Positions 32,480 through 57,195 of a stretch of DNA of 64,000 nucleotides are shown here, one piece after another. Position 1 is the stretch's first letter. The number at the start of each line of letters is the position of its first letter. The notes beneath the pieces were generated by a model that was not told the DNA's origin, made no database searches, and was given only the letters and a program-made list of their open reading frames with translations. Position numbers and translations under genes: made by a program. This DNA comes from Patescibacteria group bacterium (GTDB taxonomy: Bacteria; Patescibacteriota; Patescibacteriia; JBAZBY01). Location: positions 827,740-891,739 of the forward strand of contig JBAZBY010000001.1 of assembly GCA_041671225.1 (NCBI GenBank). Reading direction: 5' to 3'.

Positions 32480-33486
32480 GAGGTTGCGAGAATGCTTCGT
32501 TTGTATGAGTCCAAATTCTCCAACGCAATACCCGTACCACGAACAACACACAAATGTGCATCTTCTGCAACATACGCCGGTACCCCTGTTGCCTGTGCAA
32601 GGAGCCGATCAATATTCCGTAGCAATGAAGACCCGCCAGAAAGCATCATGCCTTTGTCCATAACATCCGCAGAAAGTTCCGGGGGCGTGATTTGCAACAC
32701 AGATTTCACTGCCTGAATAATCCCAGAAAGCTCATCCTGCAACGCCTCGGTAATATCATCGCTTGTCACAACAGTTGTGCGCGGGAGCCCGGAAATCATG
32801 TCACGGCCACGAACCTCAGATGAAAGCTGCTCCTCCATGAGCATAGCAGAGCCAATATCAATTTTTATCTGCTCTGCGCTTCGCTCACCAATAGCTATAC
32901 CGTATTTTTTGCGAATAAATTCCTGAATTGCAGTATCAAACTTATTTCCCCCGATGCGAATAGAGGTATTCGCAACGATCCCTCCAAGAGAAATAACCGC
33001 AATTTCTGCAGTACCCCCACCAATGTCAACAATCATGTGCCCAGATGCCGACCCAATAGGAATATCCGCTCCAATCGCGGCAGCAATAGGCTCTTTAATG
33101 ATATACGCGGCTTTTGCGCCGGCGGCAATGGTTGCATCAATAACGGCGCGACGTTCTGTTGAGGTAATACCAGCCGGGACGGCGATCATCACTTCGGGAC
33201 GCATGAGGCGTATCGCACCAACGGCCTTATTGATAAAATACCGGATCATCGCTTCGGTGGATTTATAATCTGCAATCACACCATCCCTCAATGGTCGGGA
33301 TGCAACAATGGTATCTGGGGTGCGTCCGATCATCTCTTTTGCCTCATCGCCAACGGCAAGAATTTTTTTGTCGATTTTAGACATCGCAACAACAGAAGGC
33401 TCGTTGATCACGATCCCCTTACCTGGAAGATGCACCAGTGTGTAGGTTGTCCCCAGGTCTATACCAATGCGTTTGTTGAACATCAT
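32476..33486 (-). CDS. MreB/Mbl-like actin homologue (copy 2, embedded in the glycosyltransferase cluster)
   Basis: IGIDLGTTYTLVHLPGKGIVINEPSVVAM; full-length actin fold. Roughly 50-55% identical to copy 1 by eye. Confidence 0.9.
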   Translation of the reverse strand: MMFNKRIGIDLGTTYTLVHLPGKGIVINEPSVVAMSKIDKKILAVGDEAKEMIGRTPDTIVASRPLRDGVIADYKSTEAMIRYFINKAVGAIRLMRPEVMIAVPAGITSTERRAVIDATIAAGAKAAYIIKEPIAAAIGADIPIGSASGHMIVDIGGGTAEIAVISLGGIVANTSIRIGGNKFDTAIQEFIRKKYGIAIGERSAEQIKIDIGSAMLMEEQLSSEVRGRDMISGLPRTTVVTSDDITEALQDELSGIIQAVKSVLQITPPELSADVMDKGMMLSGGSSLLRNIDRLLAQATGVPAYVAEDAHLCVVRGTGIALENLDSYKRSILATS

Positions 33487-35441
33487 TACTGTGTACGGAA
33501 GAACTGATCTTCATCGAATGCGGTGGAAAAAGTAACAGTGTCATTTTCCTTGGATTCCACTGCATTGCTCGGCGTGGCGTGCGCAATGGTTTTACCAAGC
33601 TTTATGGTACTCGTCAAGGTGGTTCGTTCCAAACCAGCTTGTTTCTGAACAGTAAGCTCATAGCCATCTTTACGCATTCGCCTGACAAGCTCATCCGGCA
33701 ATGCATAACGCAGAGTGGTCGTAATGGACTCACCAGGCTCTATACTGACAAATCCTGAAAATACCGTATACCCATGCGCGGCTCCAGTAGTTGCTTCCGT
33801 GGGCTGACCGTTGTGCAACTTGTCATTTGTTGCAAAACCACTTGATTCTAGAAGCTCACTACCAAATGGAACATAGGTACGAACATACGTTCGATAGCGC
33901 GAAATCAGTGAGGTGAATTCGCCGGTATGATGATATGTCATCGACACCGTTGCCTCGCCCGAATCAAGATCAACGTTATGTACAATGTTACGCTCCATCA
34001 CACTATCGGTTTTAAGGCTGGCAAGATTTGCATCAACAATATGCAAATAATCATTCGCCGTTGCCCGGAGAGATCCATCCCACGTGCGATCATGAAGCAC
34101 CGCCTGCACTTTTGGATCCTTTACATACAACAAGATATGACGCTCCTCGATGTTCTTGATAAAAACGCTCCAAAGACCTGGCCACTCTGCTTGTGGAAGA
34201 TTCTCCAATTTTGTAACAAGCTCCTGCCCAAGACTGCCAATAATACCCTTTCGCTCATTCCCCACTTCTCCACGCGCCACAAATCCCTTATCCACCTGAA
34301 ATCGCAACTCTTCAAGCGCATTTTCCTCAGTGAACTCAACACCATCCACGGTAATTGGACCAGTAATACCAAGGAGGTCTTTGAGGAGTACTGGAGTGAT
34401 TGCAATAACGCCATCAATATCGGGGGCATTCAAATCCTCCTCAGCATAGAGCGCCAACGCATCCTGGGCAGTCGTTGGAAAATCCGGAGACCAGTTTACA
34501 TCGCGGAAAAACCACTTATCAGCCGCGAGATACGCCTGGAGTGGCTCTGGTGCCTCACGGGTCACGCGAGGTTGTGCCGCTTCATCTAGATTGTAAACAT
34601 TGTCAGTACTAAATTCATTAACCTGACCGCTTGCAATATCAAGAATGCCATAGGTACCAATGAATCCGCCGGTTGGGCGAAGCTCCTGATTGTTCTGTAA
34701 AAGGAAAAGGTATGTTATTCCATCTGGATACCCAACGATATGTGGAAGAATACGCGTGAACGGCAATGCATTGTCGATGACATCTTCAATAAGCGGAAAT
34801 TGTTCGGCCAACTCAGCTGAAATATCTGCCAAAGGCCCAATGAGCCCAGAATCTGGAATATCATTAAAGGCCTTTTGCGCAATACTAAGGTGGTATTCAG
34901 CAGTTGCAAGGCTTTCCTCTCCGGCATCTAATGCGCCCAAAATCTGACGCCGTTCTTCATTCGTCAGTGAATCTGGCGTCAACTCCGTATTCTCCGTCAG
35001 TGTTGTGAGCGCTGCATCTGCAATATTGAGAATCTCTCGTATTGCGATACCTGTCTCCTGTGCGAGAAGAAGAAGATTATCTGCCGCAGAAACCTGCGTT
35101 CCCAAAAAAGGAACGAAGGTGAATAATCGGAAGGGGCCCATATCGTCGTGAGCCTCCGTGAATAGCGCGACGGCAGCATCGGTAGAATCTTTTGCGGCAA
35201 CAAAATCAAAAGCCAATGCTTCAATTTGTGCATCTTTAAAATACCGCTCACCTTCTCGTGCGCGTTGCTCAATATTCTTGGCGCGCACATATCCAGCAAA
35301 GCCAAGCGCGCAAAGAAGGATAACTGCAGCTCCAATAACACCCAGCAATTGCCAGCGAATGCGTCGTTGCGTTTTCTTTTTACCTGGCTTCAAGAAGTCG
35401 ACGTGCTTGTTAGCACTTTTCTTTCGTATGCTCCCCCTCAT
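33486..35441 (-). CDS. DUF4012-family membrane-anchored protein
   Basis: N-terminal TM. ELRPTGGFIGTYG matches the DUF4012 signature. This family co-occurs with polysaccharide biosynthesis loci. Confidence 0.65.
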   Translation of the reverse strand: MRGSIRKKSANKHVDFLKPGKKKTQRRIRWQLLGVIGAAVILLCALGFAGYVRAKNIEQRAREGERYFKDAQIEALAFDFVAAKDSTDAAVALFTEAHDDMGPFRLFTFVPFLGTQVSAADNLLLLAQETGIAIREILNIADAALTTLTENTELTPDSLTNEERRQILGALDAGEESLATAEYHLSIAQKAFNDIPDSGLIGPLADISAELAEQFPLIEDVIDNALPFTRILPHIVGYPDGITYLFLLQNNQELRPTGGFIGTYGILDIASGQVNEFSTDNVYNLDEAAQPRVTREAPEPLQAYLAADKWFFRDVNWSPDFPTTAQDALALYAEEDLNAPDIDGVIAITPVLLKDLLGITGPITVDGVEFTEENALEELRFQVDKGFVARGEVGNERKGIIGSLGQELVTKLENLPQAEWPGLWSVFIKNIEERHILLYVKDPKVQAVLHDRTWDGSLRATANDYLHIVDANLASLKTDSVMERNIVHNVDLDSGEATVSMTYHHTGEFTSLISRYRTYVRTYVPFGSELLESSGFATNDKLHNGQPTEATTGAAHGYTVFSGFVSIEPGESITTTLRYALPDELVRRMRKDGYELTVQKQAGLERTTLTSTIKLGKTIAHATPSNAVESKENDTVTFSTAFDEDQFFRTQ

Positions 35442-47009: not shown

Positions 47010-47037
47010 AGTATACCAAAAGCCATTTCCCTGTCAA
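47010..47037 (-). promoter_or_regulatory. Strong sigma-70-type promoter heading infA-rpmJ-rpsM-rpsK-rpsD-rpoA-rplQ
   Basis: Minus strand: TTGACA-17nt-TATACT. The -35 box overlaps the alaS stop codon. Confidence 0.5.
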
Positions 47038-48911
47038 GTTGGCAAGTCCTCTGGAATGGCACTTTCGATCGTATCTTCTACAATCGCCTTAATTCTGCGA
47101 ATTCCTGCAGCATTTGACTTCTCTGAAAGCAAAACAAACTTTCCAATCTGCGCAGTATGTGCAACATGCGGACCACCACAGAGCTCCTTCGAAAAATCCC
47201 CAATTGAATACACGCTTGAGGTTTCTCCATACTTCTCTCGAAAGAAGGAAAGTGCCCCTGATGCAAGAGCCTTTTCTGTCTCTAGTGTTTCCTTTTGGAC
47301 CTCAAGATCTTCCTGTATCTTCTCATTAACAAGGGATTCAACTTGCTGGCGTTCCTCATCAGTTAATTTCTTTGGATGTGTAAAATCAAAGCGTAAGCGT
47401 TCCGGTGTGATGTCTGAACCACTTTGGCGCACATGATCACCAAGTATGGCGCGCAACGCCTGGTGCAAAAGATGCGTTGCGGTATGCTGCCGCGTAATGC
47501 GCCACACATCTTCTTTTGACCGGTCATCTAGGCTAAAGCCTCCATGAAGACCATGCCCACCAAATTTTTTCTCTTGACCTTTTTTTGAAATCTCTTTGTG
47601 CTCATCAACAAGCTTCTGCACGGCAGACATATCAAAGATATAGCCCTTGCGCGTCAATCGCTCTAGCGAAAAACCATATGTCGTATAAAGTTGAAAAACT
47701 TTTTCTGGCGTTAGCTTGCGTGGCGCCGGCTCATGATGACCTTCTATTGCAGCGGGCACGCCTTCTGCGGAATCCAATTTCCTAAGTAGCTTCTCAATAT
47801 CAGTATTCAAAATTTTTGTATAGGCTGCCAGCTCTTGTTTTGCGCGCTCAAAAACATTCCGTTGCGTATTTTTTAGGTGTGGGTAAACCTCACTGTATGT
47901 TGCAAAAACTTCACGAAAAAGTGCGGGGATCGTTTGCGTAGCATTATCGCACTGATCCAAAGCGCGACGATAAATGCGACGTAAGATATACCCCTGATCC
48001 TTGTTGGAAAAATCCACTCCATCGGCAAGAAGAAAAACCGTTCCACGCATATGATCCATGATAATCCGTTCGGATGTTTCCTTCTCTGCATGGGAAAGTC
48101 CTTCGAATGTCTCATGCTTATGAATGGCACCATGCAATGTGTGATAAAGGTCAGTCTCATAGACTGAATTTTTTCCCTGCATTACCATGACCAAGCGCTC
48201 CAACCCCATGCCGGTATCGATATTCTTTGTCTTCATCTCTGTGAATACGCCTTTTGTGTCCTGTTCATATTCAGTAAAGACCAAATTCCATAATTCAAGA
48301 AAACGACCGGTATCACTATTTGGCCCATCATCCTTCTTCTCATCAACAACTCTACCAGTGAGATCATAATGGAGCTCGCTCGATGGCCCGCATGGGCCAG
48401 AATCTCCGGTGGGGCCCCACCAATTCTCAGCGCGTCCAAAGGCAAGAATGCGCTTCTTTGGGAGATGCTTCAGCCAGGCTTTTTCGGCGACTTCATCGCG
48501 TGGGGCATTTGCATCACCTTCAAAAATCGTCGCCCAAAATCTCTCCTTTGGTAATTTCATGATTTTTGTCATGAACTCCCACGCAAAATCGATCGCCTCT
48601 TCCTTGAAGTAATCATTCACGGAAAAATTTCCAAGCATTTCAAAGAATGTCAGGTGGCTTTCATCTCCGACGGAATCAAGATCGGCGGTACGGAAGCAGC
48701 GCTGTACGCTTGTTAATGCTTTACTTCCAAAATCCTTCTCTGCATCTTTGATGCCAAGAAAATATGACTTAAACTGCTGCATACCCGCCGAAGTCAACAA
48801 AACGCTCGGGTCATCATGTGCCGGCACAAGGGATGAAGACGGCACGCGTCTGTGCTTCTTTTCTTCAAAATAAGTGAGGAATGCCTCGCGAATCTCGGTT
48901 GCTTTCTTCAT
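47034..48911 (-). CDS. alaS: Alanyl-tRNA synthetase, compact form (catalytic + editing domains; no C-Ala domain)
   Basis: N-terminal AlaRS motifs (FLTYFEEKKHRRVPSSSLVP, DPSVLLTSAGM). Editing-domain HTATHLLHQAL and CGGPHV motifs. 625 aa. Confidence 0.9.
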   Translation of the reverse strand: MKKATEIREAFLTYFEEKKHRRVPSSSLVPAHDDPSVLLTSAGMQQFKSYFLGIKDAEKDFGSKALTSVQRCFRTADLDSVGDESHLTFFEMLGNFSVNDYFKEEAIDFAWEFMTKIMKLPKERFWATIFEGDANAPRDEVAEKAWLKHLPKKRILAFGRAENWWGPTGDSGPCGPSSELHYDLTGRVVDEKKDDGPNSDTGRFLELWNLVFTEYEQDTKGVFTEMKTKNIDTGMGLERLVMVMQGKNSVYETDLYHTLHGAIHKHETFEGLSHAEKETSERIIMDHMRGTVFLLADGVDFSNKDQGYILRRIYRRALDQCDNATQTIPALFREVFATYSEVYPHLKNTQRNVFERAKQELAAYTKILNTDIEKLLRKLDSAEGVPAAIEGHHEPAPRKLTPEKVFQLYTTYGFSLERLTRKGYIFDMSAVQKLVDEHKEISKKGQEKKFGGHGLHGGFSLDDRSKEDVWRITRQHTATHLLHQALRAILGDHVRQSGSDITPERLRFDFTHPKKLTDEERQQVESLVNEKIQEDLEVQKETLETEKALASGALSFFREKYGETSSVYSIGDFSKELCGGPHVAHTAQIGKFVLLSEKSNAAGIRRIKAIVEDTIESAIPEDLPT

Positions 48912-49981
48912 TGTATTGTCATTATACCACTTCCAATCAGTTCTGTGCCATCATAAAGCGCGAGAAATTGTCCTGGAGTCGCAGCGCGCTGCGGATGCAA
49001 AAACTGTACGCGTACATCACCTGCCGCCATGTGCTGCACGGTGCACGGCACAAGTTCTTGTCGGTACCGTAAACGCGCATGCAGTGCCACGCCATCTTTT
49101 GGCACAGGGCCAATCCAGTGCATTGCTTCCGCATGTACTTCCTTTGTGAAGAGTTCTGGAGCATGTGGACCTTCTGCGACTGTGACAGTATTTGCGTTGA
49201 CATCTGTTTTTACGACGTACTGCGGTACTCCGTTATGTGCTATCCCCAGGCCAGCCCGCTGACCAATGGTATAAAAATGTGCGCCGTCATGCATGCCAAG
49301 TTTTTCACCTTTTGTAGAAAGAACAACGCCCTGCTTTTTTGCAAGACGAGATTCTAAAAATTCCTTCAGCGGCACTTCCCCCACAAAACAAATACCTTGG
49401 CTATCTGGCCGATCTGCGCTGGGCAAACCGCGTTCTTTGGCAAAAATGCGCACCTCATCCTTTGTCATATCCGCAAGTGGAAACTCCACAAAAGGCAACA
49501 CCGCAGCGGAAACTTGGCTCAAGAAATACGTCTGATCTTTTATTGTGTCATGAGGGATATATAATGCGCTTCGATCTTTTGCATGAACCACGCGTGCATA
49601 ATGTCCTGTAGCCACGGCATCCGCACCAAAGCTCCGTGCACGCTCAACAAACGCATCAAACTTTACGATGCGGTTGCACATAATATCAGGATTCGGAGTA
49701 CGGCCAGCAGCGTATTCATCGAAGAAATATCTCATGACGCCCTCCGCATACTCTTTCTCAAAATTCCATGTAAGCAATGGGATGCCAAGATGAGCAGCTA
49801 CTCTTAAAGCTGCCCGACGATCTTCACGCCATGGACACACCCCCTGAAAACTTTCAGTCCAATTCTTCATAAAAACGCCGATCACGTCATGACCAGCATC
49901 AACAAGACGCGTCGCAGCAACTGCGGAGTCAACGCCCCCTGAAATACCAACAATAATTCGACGATGTTTTCCCATAGTCAA
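48908..49981 (-). CDS. mnmA: tRNA-specific 2-thiouridylase
   Basis: PP-loop (IVGISGGVDSAVAA) and catalytic Cys motifs. Confidence 0.9.
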   Translation of the reverse strand: MTMGKHRRIIVGISGGVDSAVAATRLVDAGHDVIGVFMKNWTESFQGVCPWREDRRAALRVAAHLGIPLLTWNFEKEYAEGVMRYFFDEYAAGRTPNPDIMCNRIVKFDAFVERARSFGADAVATGHYARVVHAKDRSALYIPHDTIKDQTYFLSQVSAAVLPFVEFPLADMTKDEVRIFAKERGLPSADRPDSQGICFVGEVPLKEFLESRLAKKQGVVLSTKGEKLGMHDGAHFYTIGQRAGLGIAHNGVPQYVVKTDVNANTVTVAEGPHAPELFTKEVHAEAMHWIGPVPKDGVALHARLRYRQELVPCTVQHMAAGDVRVQFLHPQRAATPGQFLALYDGTELIGSGIMTIQ

Positions 49982-50092
49982 GCACGAGTGTACGAAGTAT
50001 GGAGCAGCGCGTCAACAGATACTCCCCCAACCCCGCAAAAATGAAGCATACCCCGCCAAAAAGCCACAGCGACTGCTGCGCGGTCAACGCTT

Positions 50093-51880
50093 CTAAAGAT
50101 GCGCAACCTCACCCGGATGCAGCATGTGCTCGGCCGGAGGGTGTTGCCTTGTATGATTCTTATTGCGTCGTGAGCGATTATTCCGATCCTCATTACGGCC
50201 ATCGCTTTGTTGGCGAATATTCTGCTGCTGTGGACGCTCTTGTGATTGCCGACCCTGTTGTTCATGCCCACGCTGCTGCGACGCTTGTTGATTTGGCTCT
50301 CGCCTCTTTTGGTCATGCCGCGGCGGCCTATTGCTGCCCTTGAATGAAACCGTGTGGGAACCCAGTGCATCCGCGAGACTCACTGCCGGACCAGTATCCA
50401 CCACTACGGGTTGCTCCTCATGCGCTCTCTGTGTGAAGTCCGGTTGTTCACGCTTCTCTTCTCTTTTTGGGCGGTCATTATGATTTGATCTGCTCGCGTT
50501 GCTTGACCAAGGGGTACGTTGCTGCTCACGGGGCCGCTCAGTACTGCGGTCACCGCCAGCAGTGACACCTTGTTCTTTCATCATCTCCTGCAATCCTGAC
50601 CAACGTATGATTTTATCTTCAACAACACTGCGTGGTTGTCCATAGCGTTCTCGAGAGACCTTAATCACCTTATCTGCATGTCCGGACTTGTTGTGCAGTG
50701 GTGGCAAGGTTAACGCAGAAAAAGGAGAAGATGAAACTCCATCGATCATCAACTTCAGATAAACATTATATTTGGTAAGGTTCACAAGATCATCTTCTGT
50801 AAACGTTGGAGTGAATTCCTTCACAAGTTCCTCGGCATCGTTCGCTCCAACACGAAACACCACCATAGAACCAACGTTACCGAATACTGCCGCTGAAACT
50901 GTTTCATCCAGCTGTTCAATATACTGATGCGCAATGATAAGATTCAAACGATACTTACGTGCTTCTGAGAGAATCGCAGCAAAGCTTTCTGTGGCAAAGT
51001 TCTGAAATTCATCAACATAAAGATAAAAATCTTTTCGCTCCTCTTCAGGAGTATCAATTCGACTCATGGCAGCGAGCTGCAATTTTGTGATAAGCATCGC
51101 ACCAAGCAATGATGAGTTATCCTCGCCAACACGCCCCTTTGAAAGGTTAATGAGAATGATCTTTCTATTGTCCATCGCCTCGCGTAAGTCAATAGAGCTC
51201 TTTGATTGCCCAACAATATTCCTAATAATTGCGGAGGAAAGAAATTGACCAACCTTATTCTGAATTGGGGAGATTGCTTCTGTTCGAAATTTATCTGAGT
51301 ATGCGGCATATTCATCCACCCAGAAAGACCTCACAATAGGATCGGAAATATGGGAGACAATTTTCTCGCGATACTTCTTGTCTACAAGCAAGCGAGTCAC
51401 ACCAAGAAGCGTGGAACCGGGATTTTCCAAGAGTGCAAGAATCGTATTGCGCAAAACATATTCGAGTCGTGGTCCCCAGGAGTCCACCCATATTTTCTTG
51501 AAGACGCCGATGAGTCCTGAAGCAATAAGATATCGATGTGTTTCATCAACTGCTTCAAGTACGTTAAACGCAAACGGATAATCAATATCTGCAGGGTTAA
51601 AGTAGACAACATCATTAATGCGATTTTGGGGAATGTAATTCAGTAAACGCTCAACAGTATCACCATGAGGATCAACAATAGCAATCCCTTCACCATTATG
51701 AATATCCTGCACCATCATATTCTCCAGCACAGTGGACTTACCCATACCCGTCTTCCCGATAAGGTACATATGACGGCGACGGTCATCACGTTTAATACCG
51801 AACAACCTCCACATATTGCGGAAGTTTGTTCGTCCAAAAGTGACGATAGAATCCTGTGCTGGTTCAAAATCTACTGCCAT
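50093..51880 (-). CDS. HerA/FtsK-superfamily P-loop ATPase (DUF87-like) with ~180-aa disordered Q/R/E-rich C-terminal tail
   Basis: Walker A (RRRHMYLIGKTGMGKST), then IAIVDPHGD as in HerA/DUF87. Walker B (FYLYVDEFQNF). ARKYRLNLIIAHQYIEQL resembles the R-K-x-G...ATQ motif of VirB4/TraG/HerA ATPases. No TM segments. Start at MAVDFEP (51880). Confidence 0.65.
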   Translation of the reverse strand: MAVDFEPAQDSIVTFGRTNFRNMWRLFGIKRDDRRRHMYLIGKTGMGKSTVLENMMVQDIHNGEGIAIVDPHGDTVERLLNYIPQNRINDVVYFNPADIDYPFAFNVLEAVDETHRYLIASGLIGVFKKIWVDSWGPRLEYVLRNTILALLENPGSTLLGVTRLLVDKKYREKIVSHISDPIVRSFWVDEYAAYSDKFRTEAISPIQNKVGQFLSSAIIRNIVGQSKSSIDLREAMDNRKIILINLSKGRVGEDNSSLLGAMLITKLQLAAMSRIDTPEEERKDFYLYVDEFQNFATESFAAILSEARKYRLNLIIAHQYIEQLDETVSAAVFGNVGSMVVFRVGANDAEELVKEFTPTFTEDDLVNLTKYNVYLKLMIDGVSSSPFSALTLPPLHNKSGHADKVIKVSRERYGQPRSVVEDKIIRWSGLQEMMKEQGVTAGGDRSTERPREQQRTPWSSNASRSNHNDRPKREEKREQPDFTQRAHEEQPVVVDTGPAVSLADALGSHTVSFKGSNRPPRHDQKRREPNQQASQQRGHEQQGRQSQERPQQQNIRQQSDGRNEDRNNRSRRNKNHTRQHPPAEHMLHPGEVAHL

Positions 51881-51881
51881 G

Positions 51882-53321
51882 TTATGCGATAGGGAGATTA
51901 TCTGGCGGTGCCGCCGATGTATCTTCTGAAGGAACGCTGTGCTCACTCGCGGCTGCCGCTCGTTCTTCAAGGGTTGCTGGAAGTACCGTACCTTCAAACT
52001 GCTCTTCTTCTGTTAGATCTTCTTCAACCGTTGGAAGTGAAACAGGCGGCTCTGATTTCTTTGCATCTGTCTTCTTCACGAGAGGCGCCTTCACGGTCAT
52101 TACTGGGAAATGAAATATACTTGCAAGCTCTTCTGTATTCAGCACAAAAGGATATGGACCTACATCCATATCACGATCACGATATGCACTGATGAGTTTA
52201 TTCTTCTTCACTGTTTTGCGCGCATCGGCGCGCCAATATTTCGCCGATGTCTTGGTCTTCTTATCAGTTTTAAAACCGTTGGACTCTAATGTATTGTACT
52301 GCAGCATGCCCCCAATAACGGTAGCAGGACGGTCATCTTGAAAAACCTTTTTTTTGGCAGCATACACAAGACGGATCTTTGTCTCATATGCATACTTGGA
52401 AAGCTTAATGCCAATCTGCTCAACGATACGCCGCTCATGCGGCGGAAGGTGTTGCATGAGGGATTCAGGTCCGCTATCTTTGCTTGAACTTGAATCCTGA
52501 TCAGGCGGAATAATGGATGCAATAAGCGTCTGCCATGTTCCAGAGGCTATATCCTGCCCGGCAGTCAGAATACCTCCACCACCGCTACTACTCTTTGCAC
52601 CGATGAGCTTCTTGATGGCGCGAAGGCCATTTTCGCGCCATGTTTCATCTTCTGGCGGACGGATGACAAACTGAAGCCAAAACTGCTCTCCCCGGCGAAG
52701 ACGAGAAAGAATTTCAAGCAATGAAGCGAGTGGATCTAAAAATGTCTGTGTCAATGTGTGTTCAAAGACAGGGTACGTCACAATAGGAAAGTACTCTTTG
52801 TTATCCAATTTTAATTCTGTTCCCCAGATATCCCATTCACGATCCGGAAAACGACGAGGGATATCATCAACATAATCCTCTACTTCGGTGATCTCCGCAT
52901 TCGGGTACTGCGCGTAAAAAACTGCCTCAACCATATCACGGAACTTACTCGGAACTCGAACAATGAACTGCACATAGCCGCCAAGACTCACTATCTCAAA
53001 TGAAAGCGGCTGCTGTGTGTATCCCTTCCACCAGCGATCAATAAGATCGCCATTCTTCTTGATGGTGGCGAGATGGTTAAAAATATGCTCCACGGCCTTG
53101 GGTGTCTGTTCATTATCCTTTGGAATATCAATGGCAAGGAGAACCCACTTAATGCTCTGTCGATATGTTTCCTGGCGGTTACGAACAAAAATCACAGCAG
53201 CGCCAACGGCAGCAAGAACGACAAAAAACGCCCAGCCTCCACGCGCAATGAGGAGCCAAGTGATCGAAAAGGGATTGAAGTCCCCTGTATTTAGAAATGT
53301 TGAGAGACCCCCGGTTTCCAT
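51882..53321 (-). CDS. Single-pass membrane protein of unknown function (partner of the HerA-like ATPase)
   Basis: N-terminal TM (WAFFVVLAAVGAAVIFV). About 430-aa soluble part with S/G-rich and K-rich low-complexity linkers and an acidic C-terminal tail. No recognised domain. One nucleotide separates it from the ATPase gene. Confidence 0.45.
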   Translation of the reverse strand: METGGLSTFLNTGDFNPFSITWLLIARGGWAFFVVLAAVGAAVIFVRNRQETYRQSIKWVLLAIDIPKDNEQTPKAVEHIFNHLATIKKNGDLIDRWWKGYTQQPLSFEIVSLGGYVQFIVRVPSKFRDMVEAVFYAQYPNAEITEVEDYVDDIPRRFPDREWDIWGTELKLDNKEYFPIVTYPVFEHTLTQTFLDPLASLLEILSRLRRGEQFWLQFVIRPPEDETWRENGLRAIKKLIGAKSSSGGGGILTAGQDIASGTWQTLIASIIPPDQDSSSSKDSGPESLMQHLPPHERRIVEQIGIKLSKYAYETKIRLVYAAKKKVFQDDRPATVIGGMLQYNTLESNGFKTDKKTKTSAKYWRADARKTVKKNKLISAYRDRDMDVGPYPFVLNTEELASIFHFPVMTVKAPLVKKTDAKKSEPPVSLPTVEEDLTEEEQFEGTVLPATLEERAAAASEHSVPSEDTSAAPPDNLPIA

Positions 53322-53329
53322 GAGGATAT

Positions 53330-54460
53330 TTATGTTGGTGTTTCGTTTTGACTAACGGCAACAATATAGGTGCCATTAGCAGTTTTTTCAAAATGCTTTT
53401 TATTGGTCAACGCAAGATGTACGGTATTTTTTTTCACCATCCGTTGCTCCATGACCTTTTTAACGATTTCATCACGCGTGAGGCCCTCATCAGTCTCACG
53501 CAAAATCTCCTTAATAACATCAAGCACAACGCCTGGCTTGTAGCCCCACTCCTTAAGCCCATAAATACCACGACCGACCAAAACATAGCGGTCGTTAAGA
53601 ATGAGTTCATTATGCACTGTTGGTGGGTATGCCTTACGCTTATCAAACTGCGCCTCATTAATGCGACGCGTGATATCTGTAAAGTGCAACGGCTCGCCGT
53701 GCTTCTTTAAAATGAGGAAGATTTTATCGTTCATGCGACGTGGTTTTACAGATCCCCACTCCGCAAGTCCATACTCATTAAACGGATTACTTGCAACCTT
53801 TTTGCTCAATACCAAATAACTCCGAACAACTTCTGGGGCAAGACGATCACGATGCTCTTGATGAAATGGCCTCTCAGTAAAACTTTTATGAATAACATCA
53901 AATTCTTTTGGTGCGCCGTGCTCTTGAATGGTTTTATAAATCTCATCCATTACTTGATGCACAAAATCCAAAGAAATATCGGAAAGCTTCCAAGAACGAC
54001 GGAGTACCTCAGATTCTGGAACAGCATGAAATTGATCCTTCAAGAGTTCACCCATGAAGAAACGAATAACATTACGCTGCGCTGCATTTTCACCAAGGTA
54101 TGCCAAAAGTGAATCATGCATATGATCCTCTTCCATAATGCCCCCATGCTCTGCAAGGAGGCCTGTGAGCGTCTTTTCAATAGGACGGGCGTGCGTATCA
54201 AACTCACTTGACTCGCGCATCTTCGCGATGGCCGCATTCTCGATCTGGCGAATGCGTTCTCGCGTAACATCATACGAGGTGCCAATTTCCTCTAGTGTTT
54301 CCTTTTTTCCACCCTGAAGACCATAACGCCGTGCAAGGACATCTTCTTCTTTTTTACCAAGTACCTTAAGCAAAAGCTGCAAGGATTCCTGCGGATTAAA
54401 CTGCTCCAGCTTACTGGTTTGGCTCCGATCAAGGATGCGATCAAGGATTGAATCTTCCAT
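53330..54460 (-). CDS. Sigma-70 region-4 HTH protein fused to tandem HARE-HTH-like winged-helix repeats (putative transcription factor)
   Basis: Residues about 35-85 (LARRYGLQGGKKETLEEIGTSYDVTRERIRQIENAAIAKMR) are a textbook sigma-70 region 4.2; no region 2 is present. The C-terminal ~290 aa has at least three repeats ending in the HARE-HTH signature (FNEYGLAEWGS; YVLVGRGIYGLKEWGY; a third, degenerate copy). Confidence 0.6.
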   Translation of the reverse strand: MEDSILDRILDRSQTSKLEQFNPQESLQLLLKVLGKKEEDVLARRYGLQGGKKETLEEIGTSYDVTRERIRQIENAAIAKMRESSEFDTHARPIEKTLTGLLAEHGGIMEEDHMHDSLLAYLGENAAQRNVIRFFMGELLKDQFHAVPESEVLRRSWKLSDISLDFVHQVMDEIYKTIQEHGAPKEFDVIHKSFTERPFHQEHRDRLAPEVVRSYLVLSKKVASNPFNEYGLAEWGSVKPRRMNDKIFLILKKHGEPLHFTDITRRINEAQFDKRKAYPPTVHNELILNDRYVLVGRGIYGLKEWGYKPGVVLDVIKEILRETDEGLTRDEIVKKVMEQRMVKKNTVHLALTNKKHFEKTANGTYIVAVSQNETPT

Positions 54461-54503
54461 ATAATCTTATAATAGGCTTCGATTAGCCCCTGCTAACATA
54501 TTG

Positions 54504-54532
54504 AATATAACATAAGTAAAAAAATCTGTCAA
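54504..54532 (-). promoter_or_regulatory. Sigma-70-type promoter for the three-gene operon (53330-54460, 51882-53321, 50093-51880)
   Basis: Minus strand: TTGACA-17nt-TATATT within the 170-nt AT-rich gap after secF. A second weaker TTGACT box lies upstream. Confidence 0.5.
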
Positions 54533-54631
54533 CCCTGTGATACCATTTATATTAAAATCAGTCAAGTTCCTTCGAAAAAACTAAAAAAATTGCCCAGTAA
54601 ACCGAGCCTACTACACTACTTTAGTTTCTCC

Positions 54632-55528
54632 TTATGCTGTCCCTTTTCTACGCGCCCAAATTACAAGTAACGGCCCCGCAATGTAAATAGATGAATATGT
54701 ACCAACGGCAATACCAATACCTAAAACGAGAACAAAATATCGAATACTTTCCCCCCCAAAAAGAAACAACGCACCCAAAACAAGTAAGGCTGTTAGTGAA
54801 GTATTGATGGATCGGATAAGTGTTTCATTTAATGAAATATTCATAACTGAAGAGAATGTTTCATTTCCATACTTTCGAAGATTTTCACGAACACGATCAT
54901 AAACAACAATAGTGTCATGCACTGAAAATCCTAAGATTGTCAAAAGTGCAGTGATAAATAATGTATCCGCCTCTAACCCTATATATGCACCGAGTACCGC
55001 ATACAATCCAAGTGGTATGAGAATATCATGTATAAGCGCGATAATCGCACCAACACCATAAAACCACGCAGGTACCGGTCCAGCAGATACTTTTCGAAAT
55101 GCCCACGTTATATAAAGGATAATACCCGTAAGCACTGCACCAATTGCAATGAGAGCTTTTTTCTGCAATTCACCTCCAATTGTTGATCCAATCGAAGAAA
55201 AACTTTTTTCATCAATTTGACCATATGATTCGCGTAGTGATTCAATCAGTATTTCCTTTTCATTATTTGAGAGTGATGTCAACCGAATGAAAACATCATT
55301 ATCACCAGAAGGTTGCACGCGTACCTCAGTAATATCTTGCGCTATAATTACCTGTTCAAGAATTCCCACATCAGGTCGCTCATCTAAAAAACGTATGTGT
55401 AATAGACTTCCCCCCGTAAAATCAATACCCGGGGTAATGCCCCAAATGATCAATGCGAGGATTGCGAGAAGTACAAGGCTCGCTGAGAATCCAAGAGTAA
55501 ATTTTTGCCAACGAATAAAATCAATCAT
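54632..55528 (-). CDS. secF: Protein translocase subunit SecF
   Basis: GIDFTGGSLL and SecF TM topology. Confidence 0.9.
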   Translation of the reverse strand: MIDFIRWQKFTLGFSASLVLLAILALIIWGITPGIDFTGGSLLHIRFLDERPDVGILEQVIIAQDITEVRVQPSGDNDVFIRLTSLSNNEKEILIESLRESYGQIDEKSFSSIGSTIGGELQKKALIAIGAVLTGIILYITWAFRKVSAGPVPAWFYGVGAIIALIHDILIPLGLYAVLGAYIGLEADTLFITALLTILGFSVHDTIVVYDRVRENLRKYGNETFSSVMNISLNETLIRSINTSLTALLVLGALFLFGGESIRYFVLVLGIGIAVGTYSSIYIAGPLLVIWARRKGTA

Positions 55529-57195
55529 TGTGTTTTCTCTGTATCTTTAACTCCAAGTAACCAGCGCGCGGCTCGCGAATCACTGGTTAAAACAAAACGC
55601 ATAAAGGTTCTCGTGACCGTAATTGCTGAAAACATACTCACAAAAATACCGATGGAAAGCGTTATCGCAAATCCCTTAATGAGTGATGTACCAAACCAAA
55701 TAAGTATCAGTGTCGTGATCAGACTAGAAATATTTGAATCACGGATGGATGTCCACGCGCGACGAAAGCCCTCTTCAATGGCAAAGGACACCTCCTGCCC
55801 GCCACGAAGTTCTTCTTTGAGTCGTTCAAAAATAAGAATATTCGCATCAACCGCAATACCAATGGAAAAAATAAAACCAGCAACCCCAGCAAGTGTGAGA
55901 GTTACTGAAAAAAGCTTAAAAATTGCAAATGTTACGAGGGTATAAATAGTAAGTGCAAAAACAGAAAGGAGGCCAGGCAAACGGTAAAAAAGGATCATAA
56001 AAATAATAACCGCAAGGAGCCCAATCACCCCAGCGATAATGCTTTTTTGGACACTTTCCGTCCCTAAACTCGCACCAACATTCTGTTGCGTAATGAGTGA
56101 AACGGGCACTGGCAACGCACCAGCATTTAATCGTTGCGCAAGGTCTTTTGCTTCCTGAAGCGTAAATGTTCCCGTAATGGTCGCGACACCATCCGGAATG
56201 ACCGCTTGCACAACCGGAGTGCTAATGGGAGCATCATCAAGAAAAATACCCACAGGTTGGTTAAGATTACGCTCAGTAATCTCCCCAAAAAGAACCTTGC
56301 CTTCATCATTGAATGTCAACTGAACGGCTGGAGCGCCTGTTTGTTGATCAAAAATAACATCTGCCCGCTGGAGCTGCTTGCCAGAAAGCGCTGTGCGCAC
56401 AAAATTGCTTTGAGTATTCTCAACTTCCTGTGTCGCGACGCGCTTAATGATATGAAAACCGAATTGTGTTTCAACGAGTTCAGGGAATACCCCGCCGTCT
56501 GACAACTTATCAAATAAAACATCATCAAACTCGGTGACAAAAGATCCGCGCGGGGCAAAGCCCAGATCCCCGCCTGCGTTTGTGCCATCTGGCAGCTGAT
56601 TCCCTGGATCATCGGTAAACTCATTCGCAAGCGCAGAAAAATCCTCCCCTGCTACTGCTCGATCAAGCACGCTACGTGCCTCTGCGCGGATTGCATCGCT
56701 ATCTACCGCCGCTCCGTCTGTGGGCTGGGTTGAAAAAAGAATATGTTGTCCTTGAACCTCTTCATGTGTTCCAGCTTCTTCACTGAGCTGCAACTCGCGA
56801 AAATCAAGCGTTGGCGTCTCACCGATCAATGCAATAGCCTCAGAAATATCTGTGATACCCGCAAGGTCAGCAATCACGCGATAGTCATCACCCACGACCT
56901 GTGTTTGCACAATAGGCTCAGCAACTCCAAGACTATTCACGCGACGCTCAATAACATCTCGCACGCCTTCAAGGGCATTCGTATGTTCATCGGATGGAAT
57001 ATCCTGCATGTTTGCTGAATAGACAAGATGCGTTCCGCCTTGCAAATCTAAGCCAAGGCGCAGCGGCACCTTGAAGGACCAGTTACCAATGCGAACCTCA
57101 TTGCGCCGGGGATCCGCTATAAAGCCGGAAACCACCGCCAGCACGAGAATGCCGATAATAAGGAGAAATACCCGTTTACGGTTTTGCATAAACAT
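55525..57195 (-). CDS. secD: Protein translocase subunit SecD
   Basis: GLDLQGGTHLVY and the SecD periplasmic and TM regions. Confidence 0.9.
   Translation of the reverse strand: MFMQNRKRVFLLIIGILVLAVVSGFIADPRRNEVRIGNWSFKVPLRLGLDLQGGTHLVYSANMQDIPSDEHTNALEGVRDVIERRVNSLGVAEPIVQTQVVGDDYRVIADLAGITDISEAIALIGETPTLDFRELQLSEEAGTHEEVQGQHILFSTQPTDGAAVDSDAIRAEARSVLDRAVAGEDFSALANEFTDDPGNQLPDGTNAGGDLGFAPRGSFVTEFDDVLFDKLSDGGVFPELVETQFGFHIIKRVATQEVENTQSNFVRTALSGKQLQRADVIFDQQTGAPAVQLTFNDEGKVLFGEITERNLNQPVGIFLDDAPISTPVVQAVIPDGVATITGTFTLQEAKDLAQRLNAGALPVPVSLITQQNVGASLGTESVQKSIIAGVIGLLAVIIFMILFYRLPGLLSVFALTIYTLVTFAIFKLFSVTLTLAGVAGFIFSIGIAVDANILIFERLKEELRGGQEVSFAIEEGFRRAWTSIRDSNISSLITTLILIWFGTSLIKGFAITLSIGIFVSMFSAITVTRTFMRFVLTSDSRAARWLLGVKDTEKTQ

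Follow-up and report, generated by a model that had tools for sequence, protein, structure and literature searches.

A putative split coupling-protein-like ATPase with a VirB4-type N-terminal module at a conserved locus of Patescibacteria

Patescibacteria are a very large, mostly uncultured and host-cell-dependent group of bacteria, in which the machines of the cell envelope are the main clues to lifestyle. We analysed a three-gene locus, here called g1-g2-g3, within a stretch of 64,000 nucleotides from a Patescibacteria group bacterium (assembly GCA_041671225.1, contig JBAZBY010000001.1, positions 827,740 to 891,739; hereafter the window, in which all coordinates are counted), where g1 encodes a protein with sigma-70 region-4 and HARE-HTH domains, g2 a membrane protein and g3 an ATPase resembling the coupling proteins (T4CPs) of type IV secretion systems (T4SSs). 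ATPases of this last kind have been surveyed by Quiñonero-Coronel et al. (2025), who found VirB4 in 2,417 of 3,035 Patescibacteria genomes and 5,713 VirD4-type T4CP homologues in 2,918 of the same 3,035, or roughly two VirD4-like genes to a genome, hardly any of them beside a T4SS (PMC12102498). Proteins of the g3 type were thus already annotated and counted, as the Patescibacteria 'orphan T4CP homologue', with their role left open and exaptation held by the authors to be not excludable; the same survey describes TrsD, a protein resembling the VirB4 N-terminal domain (NTD), as widespread in Patescibacteria and mostly near virB4 (PMC12102498). For one member of the group, Southlakia epibionticum, transposon-insertion sequencing (Tn-seq) and annotation tables are available (Wang et al. 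2023; PMC10633639).

The described systems that come closest to the locus are the VirD4/TrwB coupling proteins and the VirB4 ATPases. With the former (R388 TrwB, 1e9r; DotL, 6sz9), g3 shares a TrwB-homologous P-loop domain that has a helical insert and in which the Walker A and B motifs are intact; like many T4CPs, it also has a disordered C-terminal tail. Unlike canonical T4CPs, however, g3 has no N-terminal transmembrane (TM) segment on its own polypeptide; the anchor would instead be provided in trans by g2, a separate protein with a predicted VirB4-NTD fold, which is a domain that canonical T4CPs lack. Furthermore, g3 is encoded without a relaxase or T4SS gene set around it, and it is chromosomal and conserved phylum-wide. 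The architecture of VirB4 (R388 TrwK, 7o42/8rtb; the C-terminal domain, CTD, of T. pseudethanolicus VirB4, 4ag5), an NTD followed by a P-loop CTD, would be rebuilt by g2 and g3 together, but as two chains encoded by two genes rather than as a single polypeptide, with a TM helix of their own in place of the VirB3 partner and with no VirB3/VirB6/VirB8-type genes beside them. A precedent for a VirB4-NTD-like protein encoded apart from its ATPase is found in TrsD and TrsE(VirB4) of the pGO1-type mating-pair formation class MPF-FATA, TrsD being described as a remote homologue of the VirB4 N-terminus. Most Patescibacteria TrsD homologues lie near virB4, however, whereas the ATPase encoded with g2 is T4CP-like and distant from virB4.

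An original prediction, made from the letters of the window, had proposed that the operon could be an undescribed translocation or defence-type system. The ATPase family proves to be known and annotated, while the VirB4-type module, the existence of split and fused forms and the conserved link to an essential sigma region-4/HARE-HTH protein appear not to have been described before. The DUF8128/VirB4-NTD module is mentioned in neither of the two studies cited above (PMC12102498, PMC10633639), and a search of the full-text literature for PF26449 or DUF8128 found no papers. The VirD4-like ATPases of Patescibacteria thereby gain an architecture, in that a VirB4-type N-terminal module always goes with them, as part of the same chain in some lineages and as a separate protein here; DUF8128 gains a model-based structural assignment, and an evolutionary link between VirB4 and the coupling proteins is suggested.

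Architecture of g2 and g3

The ATPase g3 exceeded the cut-offs of four Pfam families, TrwB_AAD_bind (48 bits, cut-off 20.5), DUF87, T4SS-DNA_transf and TraG-D_C. Its best NCBIfam matches were TraD/VirD4-type models, VirB4 models reaching only 12-20 bits; its scores against VirB4 families lay below the cut-offs (AAA_10, 12.4 bits against 27.5; TIGR00929, 12.8 against 643), and none of AAA_10, CagE_TrbE_VirB and TIGR00929 placed it in the VirB4 ATPase family. TrwB and DotL were the only sequence relatives of g3 in the PDB, whether the search was made with the single sequence or with a profile of 51 sequences. The ATPase had originally been called HerA/FtsK-like, with DUF87/HerA hallmarks and without TM segments. 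Its place in the HerA/FtsK/VirB4/VirD4 super-group is borne out, but by sequence it is specifically T4CP-like. The motifs on which the assignment was based, RRRH (residues 34-37), DPHG (residues 70-73) and RKYRLNLIIAHQ, are present with most of their residues invariant in the 51 homologues, D290, E291, R308, K309, Y310 and Q319 among the invariant positions, and we found no hydrophobic window in g3, whose Walker A motif begins as early as residue 42.

An AlphaFold model of g3 was confident over residues 10-437 and disordered over residues 438-595. In structural comparisons of the fold, the figures obtained were 24.5 for VirB4-CTD (4ag5), 24.3 for the DndH C-domain, 23.1 for TrwB and 22.7 for HerA. 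Across the closest 120 homologues the core is 57-80% identical, with all catalytic residues invariant. Taken together, these data give good support for g3 as a motor with a VirB4-CTD/TrwB (VirD4) fold and a T4CP sequence signature, which, judging from its sequence, should be catalytically intact. The disordered tail (residues 438-595, 50569..50096) is basic and rich in arginine and glutamine, with a net charge of +7. Short conserved motifs were noted within it, ISLxEAL in a short helix near residues 502-507 and LxPGQV at the C-terminus, and its charge is opposite to that of the disordered tail of g2 (net -12).

The second protein, g2, had been taken for a single-pass membrane protein with no detectable domain. 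A single hydrophobic stretch agrees with the first part of this description, but the second part does not hold: the identical database protein (P0001) and most homologues are assigned to DUF8128 (Pfam PF26449) by precomputed database annotation, and our local Pfam scan returned 0 families for g2 from a copy that did not include the PF26449 model. The flank N-terminal to the helix contains no lysine or arginine and the sequence that follows it, VRNRQETYRQSIK, is basic, so that by the positive-inside rule the N-terminus would lie outside and the C-terminus inside. An alignment of 42 sequences delimited a conserved domain at residues ~57-417, with the motifs YAQYPxAE and EELAxxxHFP, followed by a variable acidic tail with a conserved PxNLP end. 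Within this tail P425, P426, L429 and P430 are invariant or nearly so and P473 and P477 are conserved in at least 90% of sequences, while the predicted local distance difference test score (pLDDT) falls below 50 at residues 418-448 and 461-472. The AlphaFold model as a whole reached a pLDDT of 79.8 and a predicted template modelling score (pTM) of 0.73, residues 21-240 and 291-400 for the most part exceeding a pLDDT of 85, and when it was compared with known structures by Foldseek the top 14 matches were all chains of TrwK (E 3e-5 to 1e-2). On the strength of this model, a membrane helix joined to a cytoplasmic domain with the fold of a VirB4-type NTD is a well-supported description of g2. The protein would therefore be the missing N-terminal half of the ATPase, and not, as first supposed, an independent accessory partner.

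This reading is in line with the existence of proteins in which both parts form one chain. The profile of phrog_5156 (824 positions) is matched by g2 at positions 75-360 and by g3 at positions 407-807, and an 883-aa protein from a Shouchella clausii plasmid (WP_248290882.1) is matched by both in the same order, by g2 with E 7e-11 and by g3 with E 8e-44. With a fused relative as the seed, a sensitive search returned 1,317 clusters at E <= 0.001, and both halves were found in one chain of ~750-1,130 aa in 119 of the 167 sequences retrieved. Many of these one-chain proteins combine an N-terminal hydrophobic helix with a g3-like part sharing 40-61% identity with g3 and so look, on sequence grounds, like a Patescibacteria-type fused form; in addition, precomputed Pfam annotation places DUF8128 and TrwB_AAD_bind within single genes on contigs with a housekeeping context like that of the candidate phyla radiation (CPR). 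In the fused forms one part runs straight into the other and the tail of g2 is absent (in the protein P0389, the alignment to g2 residues 16-434 ends at position 438 and that to g3 starts at position 442), which is why we propose that the end of the g2 tail tethers g2 to g3. Among 80 loci of the split type no natural g2-g3 fusion was found, one apparent case (L029) being an artefact of masked N bases. It is thus well supported that g2 and g3 are two halves of one machine, composed of a TM helix, a DUF8128/VirB4-NTD domain and a P-loop ATPase, and that they represent, in split form, a gene carried by nearly all Patescibacteria.

We also distinguished two ancient paralogues of the DUF8128 plus T4CP-like unit, of which the copy in the window represents type A. 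Compared with type A, type B is 43-44% identical in the g3-like part and 25-29% identical in the g2-like part, and it was seen in tandem with type A or less than 10 kb away (L086, 5581..10985; L015, 153..2582; L018, 1863..4076). The presence of this second, older paralogue fits the published figure of about two T4CP homologues per genome.

Conservation of the locus and its relatives

A scan of one genome per species yielded at least 580 loci with relatives of g2, of which the best 80 were analysed, the testable ones being those with enough flanking sequence. Of 74 testable loci, 59 have g3 as the very next gene after g2 (median gap 6 nt), and of 76 testable loci, 42 have g1 directly before g2 (median gap ~104 nt); the link to g1 is therefore looser than the link to g3. 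Nevertheless g1 also precedes the fused form, both in locus L087, with an 8-nt gap, and in Southlakia. Upstream, secF is found within 2.5 kb in 44 of 76 testable loci, and mnmA and alaS recur downstream. In the window itself the order is murC-murB-hpf-secA-L,D-transpeptidase-secD-secF-g1-g2-g3-mnmA-alaS, which agrees with the housekeeping context noted originally, and the GC content of the locus (0.45-0.47) lies within the range of the window (0.41-0.50). The original prediction had also asked whether the three genes are conserved together and whether they travel with T4SS genes or defence islands: they are conserved together at the frequencies given above, and neither was found with them in the window or the 80 related loci, the search for VirB4 being of low sensitivity; the housekeeping synteny extends across the phylum. 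The g1-g2-g3 locus is a core housekeeping locus, neither a defence island nor a mobile element.

Homologues of g2 number more than 2,200, and every one with an organism name carries a Patescibacteria-type label. A tblastn search of 50,697 phage records with g2 gave no match, and IMG/VR held a single edge fragment; on these data we rejected a phage origin. In six of the loci (L032, L049, L065, L069, L076 and L079) a shorter g1 is followed by g2 and then, where g3 would stand, by three other genes. Those of L032 encode a GT4 glycosyltransferase, a ~850-aa DUF4012 protein and a ~660-aa DUF11 protein, and open reading frames (ORFs) of matching sizes are present in the remaining five loci. Many records of metagenome-assembled genomes titled 'uncultured Gammaproteobacteria bacterium' carry the Patescibacteria-type order secDF-g1-g2-g3-mnmA-alaS (L011, L012, L014, L017, L029, L033, L034, L040, L045, L052 and others), and these labels look wrong.

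In Southlakia, SEML1_0294 encodes a 349-aa protein with Sigma70_r4 and HARE-HTH domains and is essential, and directly downstream SEML1_0293 encodes a 921-aa protein with an ATPase domain at ~402-719 and is non-essential, its normalised Tn-seq reads falling from 5,817 to 2,940 to 1,372, a slow depletion of mutants, while those of its neighbours stayed flat (PMC10633639). The two genes have the same order and strand as g1 and g2-g3, and both belong to core, Patescibacteria-enriched families; from this synteny we infer that SEML1_0293 is the fused orthologue of g2-g3, a single chain of 921 aa with its ATPase domain from ~400, in contrast to the two chains of the window. A second T4CP-like protein of 1,019 aa, SEML1_0142, is essential, as is the canonical FtsK, SEML1_0096 (PMC10633639). 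SEML1_0142 may be of type B. Southlakia is the one genetically tractable member of the group, the genes of interest there being SEML1_0293, SEML1_0142 and SEML1_0294.

In the product of g1, a helix-turn-helix of the sigma-70 region-4 type spans residues 30-83 (Sigma70_r4, E 3.6e-13) and HARE-HTH winged helices follow from residue 245 (E 2.1e-10), the two domains that the original prediction had named. Its relatives in the PDB by sequence are region 4 of RpoD/SigA. It is not a sigma-70 factor with regions 2 and 4, since only region 4 is present, and its scores against NCBIfam sigma models were all far under the cut-offs. Although transcribed here together with g2 and g3, g1 probably encodes an RNA-polymerase-associated factor, and a general one is more likely than a private regulator of the operon. 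The part of the original prediction that made g1 a dedicated regulator of g2-g3 is probably not right, because the Southlakia orthologue of g1 is essential and the ATPase downstream of it is dispensable. The HARE-HTH domains of g1 are δ-subunit-like, and the family is a core, Patescibacteria-enriched one made up only of sigma-70 region 4 and HARE-HTH winged helices; we found no papers on the combination of HARE-HTH with sigma region 4. The operon promoter has a perfect TTGACA -35 box, to which, going by the sequence, the region-4 domain could in principle bind.

Outside Patescibacteria, the informative relatives are fused DUF8128-DUF87 proteins of Firmicutes (WP_248290882.1; WP_199668522.1 of ~18.8-kb elements of the Bacillus cereus group; phrog_5156). 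They contain the same modules in the same order, DUF8128 by precomputed Pfam annotation, with a g2-like part that is 29% identical and a g3-like part that is 28-29% identical, but they are single polypeptides with no N-terminal hydrophobic helix and are encoded by mobile, not core, genes. The gene order is [DUF8128-ATPase]-[Replic_Relax]-TcpC-TcpE-VirB4(AAA_10)-…-cell-wall hydrolase in the B. cereus-group elements, on the Shouchella plasmid and on a related metagenomic contig. The fused genes belong to transfer modules of the Tcp/ICEBs1 type and have a Replic_Relax gene as neighbour, a position next to the relaxase that we take, from the gene order of ICEBs1 and pCW3, to be that of the coupling protein (ConQ/TcpA). 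Since one Bacillus element also has a separate FtsK_SpoIIIE gene, the assignment of the Firmicutes fused gene as a T4CP is positional and not proven. The family phrog_5156 probably derives from conjugative elements.

Proposed function and alternatives

The best explanation of these data, and one that we regard as an even call, is that g2-g3 is a membrane-anchored, T4CP-like substrate motor that serves a distal T4SS. In such a machine g3 would form a ring, as do its structural relatives TrwB, VirB4 and HerA, and g2 would hold this ring against the membrane on its inner side, with the covalent link of the fused forms replaced by the acidic tail of g2 and its conserved PxNLP end. ATP hydrolysis would then recruit and push a substrate, which may be DNA or protein, probably to the phylum's chromosomal, relaxase-less T4SS encoded elsewhere, where the VirB4-like domain could dock in the way that VirB4 docks. 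Service to this distal T4SS seems most likely because relatives outside the phylum stand at the T4CP position and because g2 has a VirB4-type domain, presumably the T4SS docking module, as in the solved machine of R388 (7o42, 8rtb). Coupling proteins that share one channel but differ in substrate would be compatible with the presence of two paralogues, the other of which is apparently essential in Southlakia.

Several observations weigh against this explanation. A Pfam scan of the ten largest other ORFs of the window revealed no VirB4 or other T4SS gene, a tblastn search for VirB4 in the window and the 80 related loci was negative at low sensitivity, and window scans found no relaxase/T4SS (mating-pair formation) gene set beside g2-g3. 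Neither of the two outcomes that the original prediction had named as overturning it was observed, namely an ATPase inside canonical VirB4/VirD4 with T4SS genes nearby or a lack of joint conservation of the three genes. In the published survey only 148 of the 5,713 T4CP homologues are near virB4, and T4CP-like genes are present in 96% of genomes compared with 80% for VirB4 (PMC12102498); in Southlakia the T4SS is essential and the syntenic SEML1_0293 is non-essential (PMC10633639). For g2, no sequence link to VirB4 was found by phmmer or by profile searches of the PDB, and hhalign of g2 against one Firmicutes VirB4 gave a probability of 0.2, so that the relationship is drawn from structure. 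Finally, the g2-g3 contact, ring assembly, substrate and topology are all things that we infer.

Some of these points would sit comfortably with a second account, which we consider possible if on the unlikely side, namely that g2-g3 is a stand-alone, T4SS-independent membrane translocase, for example for DNA uptake or export or for anchoring nucleic acid at the membrane, the same split motor having been exapted for a housekeeping-like task in the ancestor of Patescibacteria and being possibly linked to g1 or to the neighbouring Sec genes. The greater prevalence of T4CP-like genes than of VirB4 makes a T4SS-independent role possible, as does the rarity of T4CP homologues beside virB4, and exaptation has been raised by the authors of the survey themselves. 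The dispensability of the Southlakia orthologue alongside an essential T4SS, the conserved order secD-secF-g1-g2-g3…mnmA-alaS, the link with an RNA-polymerase-type DNA-binding protein that is kept even in fused lineages, the basic R/Q-rich tail of g3 and its weak NCBIfam matches to the archaeal DNA-import ATPases CedD and CedB all point the same way. Gene order alone, however, is weak functional evidence; every informative homologue outside the phylum occupies the T4CP position of a conjugation module; the T4SS docking role that the VirB4-type NTD has in the solved R388 machine argues in the other direction; and no gene for a channel partner, ComEC for instance, accompanies g2-g3. A role in replacing FtsK is unlikely, and as a substitute for FtsK the pair was rejected, given that Southlakia keeps a canonical, essential FtsK. 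A broader version of this idea, in which the near-universal 'orphan T4CPs' form a distinct, ancient class of membrane translocases, built of a TM helix, a VirB4-type NTD and a T4CP-type motor, that bridges VirB4 and VirD4, works independently of T4SSs and is tied to the essential sigma region-4/HARE-HTH protein, for example in handling DNA at the membrane as it is taken up from the host cell or passed on to it, strikes us as doubtful.

That the locus is a HerA-centred anti-phage defence system, with the ATPase and a membrane effector sensing and aborting infection, is very improbable. It is true that g3 matches PADLOC mad8 (E 4e-16) and has several HerA matches, and that the region-4 domain of g1 also matches that of MzaA, a defence-associated sigma factor; but these matches reflect a shared P-loop fold and a shared sigma region-4 domain. 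Compared with the defence HerA ATPases (mad8/HerA; DndH/DptH; Nezha HerA-Sir2), whose systems pair the ATPase with an effector or modification partner in patchy islands, only the ATPase of our locus matches: g2 has no PADLOC match, and its predicted fold is that of a VirB4 NTD and not of a nuclease, Sir2 or other effector, and the best profiles for g3 are those of T4CPs. Moreover, the locus is single-copy and syntenic between secDF and mnmA-alaS in hundreds of species, unlike defence islands, with housekeeping synteny in 80 of the 80 loci examined; its families are classed as 'core' in Southlakia and g2 is essentially absent from viral contigs. The phylum-wide synteny contradicts a defence island and the PADLOC matches are at the level of the fold only; the defence part of the original prediction is not supported.

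Scarcely credible is the view that the locus was left behind by an integrated conjugative element or a prophage, as a decayed coupling protein without function for the host: the fused homologues in Bacillus and Shouchella conjugative elements and in a PHROG family would suit it, but the GC content is native, there are no integrases, relaxases or repeats nearby, and the high identity of the g3 core, its invariant catalytic residues and the same chromosomal position in many lineages speak against it. A decayed integrative and conjugative element was rejected on the grounds of this conserved position, the invariant catalytic residues and signs of purifying selection.

Operon layout and neighbouring genes

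The three genes are tightly packed, as originally described, and all lie on the minus strand, which the original prediction had not stated, with spacers of 8 nt (atatcctc) between g1 and g2 and of 1 nt between g2 and g3, and translational coupling of g2 and g3 through the latter is well supported (Table 1). A longer call for g3 by the ORF lister, a TTG-initiated frame at 51997..50093 (634 aa) that overlaps g2, was set aside in favour of the ATG at 51880, because M1 is near-invariant across the 51 aligned homologues. Upstream, 171 nt separate the secF stop (54632) from the ATG of g1, close to the 170 nt given at first; downstream, the gap to mnmA measures 111 nt, as stated before, with the TTG start at 49981, or 117 nt with an ATG at 49975.

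The consensus-like promoter on which the operon had been proposed to depend is present and is the best-scoring site within 49800..54800. Promoter-like sites are no more frequent in the region than expected (8 observed, 8.0±3.1 in shuffled sequences), and the evidence for the operon promoter therefore lies in its quality and position. Two terminator-like hairpins are predicted to mark the boundaries of the operon, and the separate mnmA promoter that had been placed in the downstream gap finds a counterpart in a weaker promoter-like site. An Rfam scan of 47-58 kb gave no matches.

Table 1. Positions of the genes, protein segments and predicted signals of the g1-g2-g3 locus in the window
Feature	Position	Strand	Remarks
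g1	54460..53330	minus	376 aa
g2	53321..51882	minus	479 aa
g3	51880..50093	minus	595 aa
g2 hydrophobic segment, residues ~18-49	53175..53270	minus	Kyte-Doolittle windows >=1.6 only here
g2 C-terminal tail, residues 418-479	51885..52070	minus	disordered, net charge -12, EPPxxLP and terminal PxNLP
g3 Walker A GKTGMGKST, residues 42-50	51731..51757	minus	G42, G45, G47 and K48 invariant in 51 homologues
g3 Walker B (LYVDEFQ, D290/E291) and RKYRLNLIIAHQ motif (residues 308-319)	50924..51025	minus	read from the sequence
Sigma-70-type promoter TTGACA-17-TATATT with TG extension	54532..54504	minus	11/12 consensus positions
Terminator-like hairpin then T-run, after secF stop	54607..54592	minus	predicted; 6-bp stem, 4 G-C pairs, tail AATTTTTTTA
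Terminator-like hairpin, 12 nt past g3 stop	50080..50065	minus	predicted; 6-bp stem, 4 G-C pairs, tail GCTTTTTGGC
Weaker promoter-like site for mnmA	50015..49987		

Some features of the neighbouring genes were noted in passing. SecD (55525..57195, minus strand) contains an inserted parvulin-type peptidyl-prolyl isomerase domain (precomputed Pfam: SecD_1st, Rotamase_3/Rotamase, SecDF_P1_head), and its tblastn matches in many related loci begin only at query residue ~135-185, which suggests that either the insert or the N-terminal region is confined to certain lineages. The alaS ORF (47034..48911, minus strand) overlaps mnmA by 4 nt and encodes only 625 aa; typical bacterial alanyl-tRNA synthetases are much longer, and the enzyme of the window may therefore be C-terminally reduced. 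A DUF4012 gene is also present in the window, at 33486..35441, inside a polysaccharide-type cluster (Wzy_C, Polysacc_synt).

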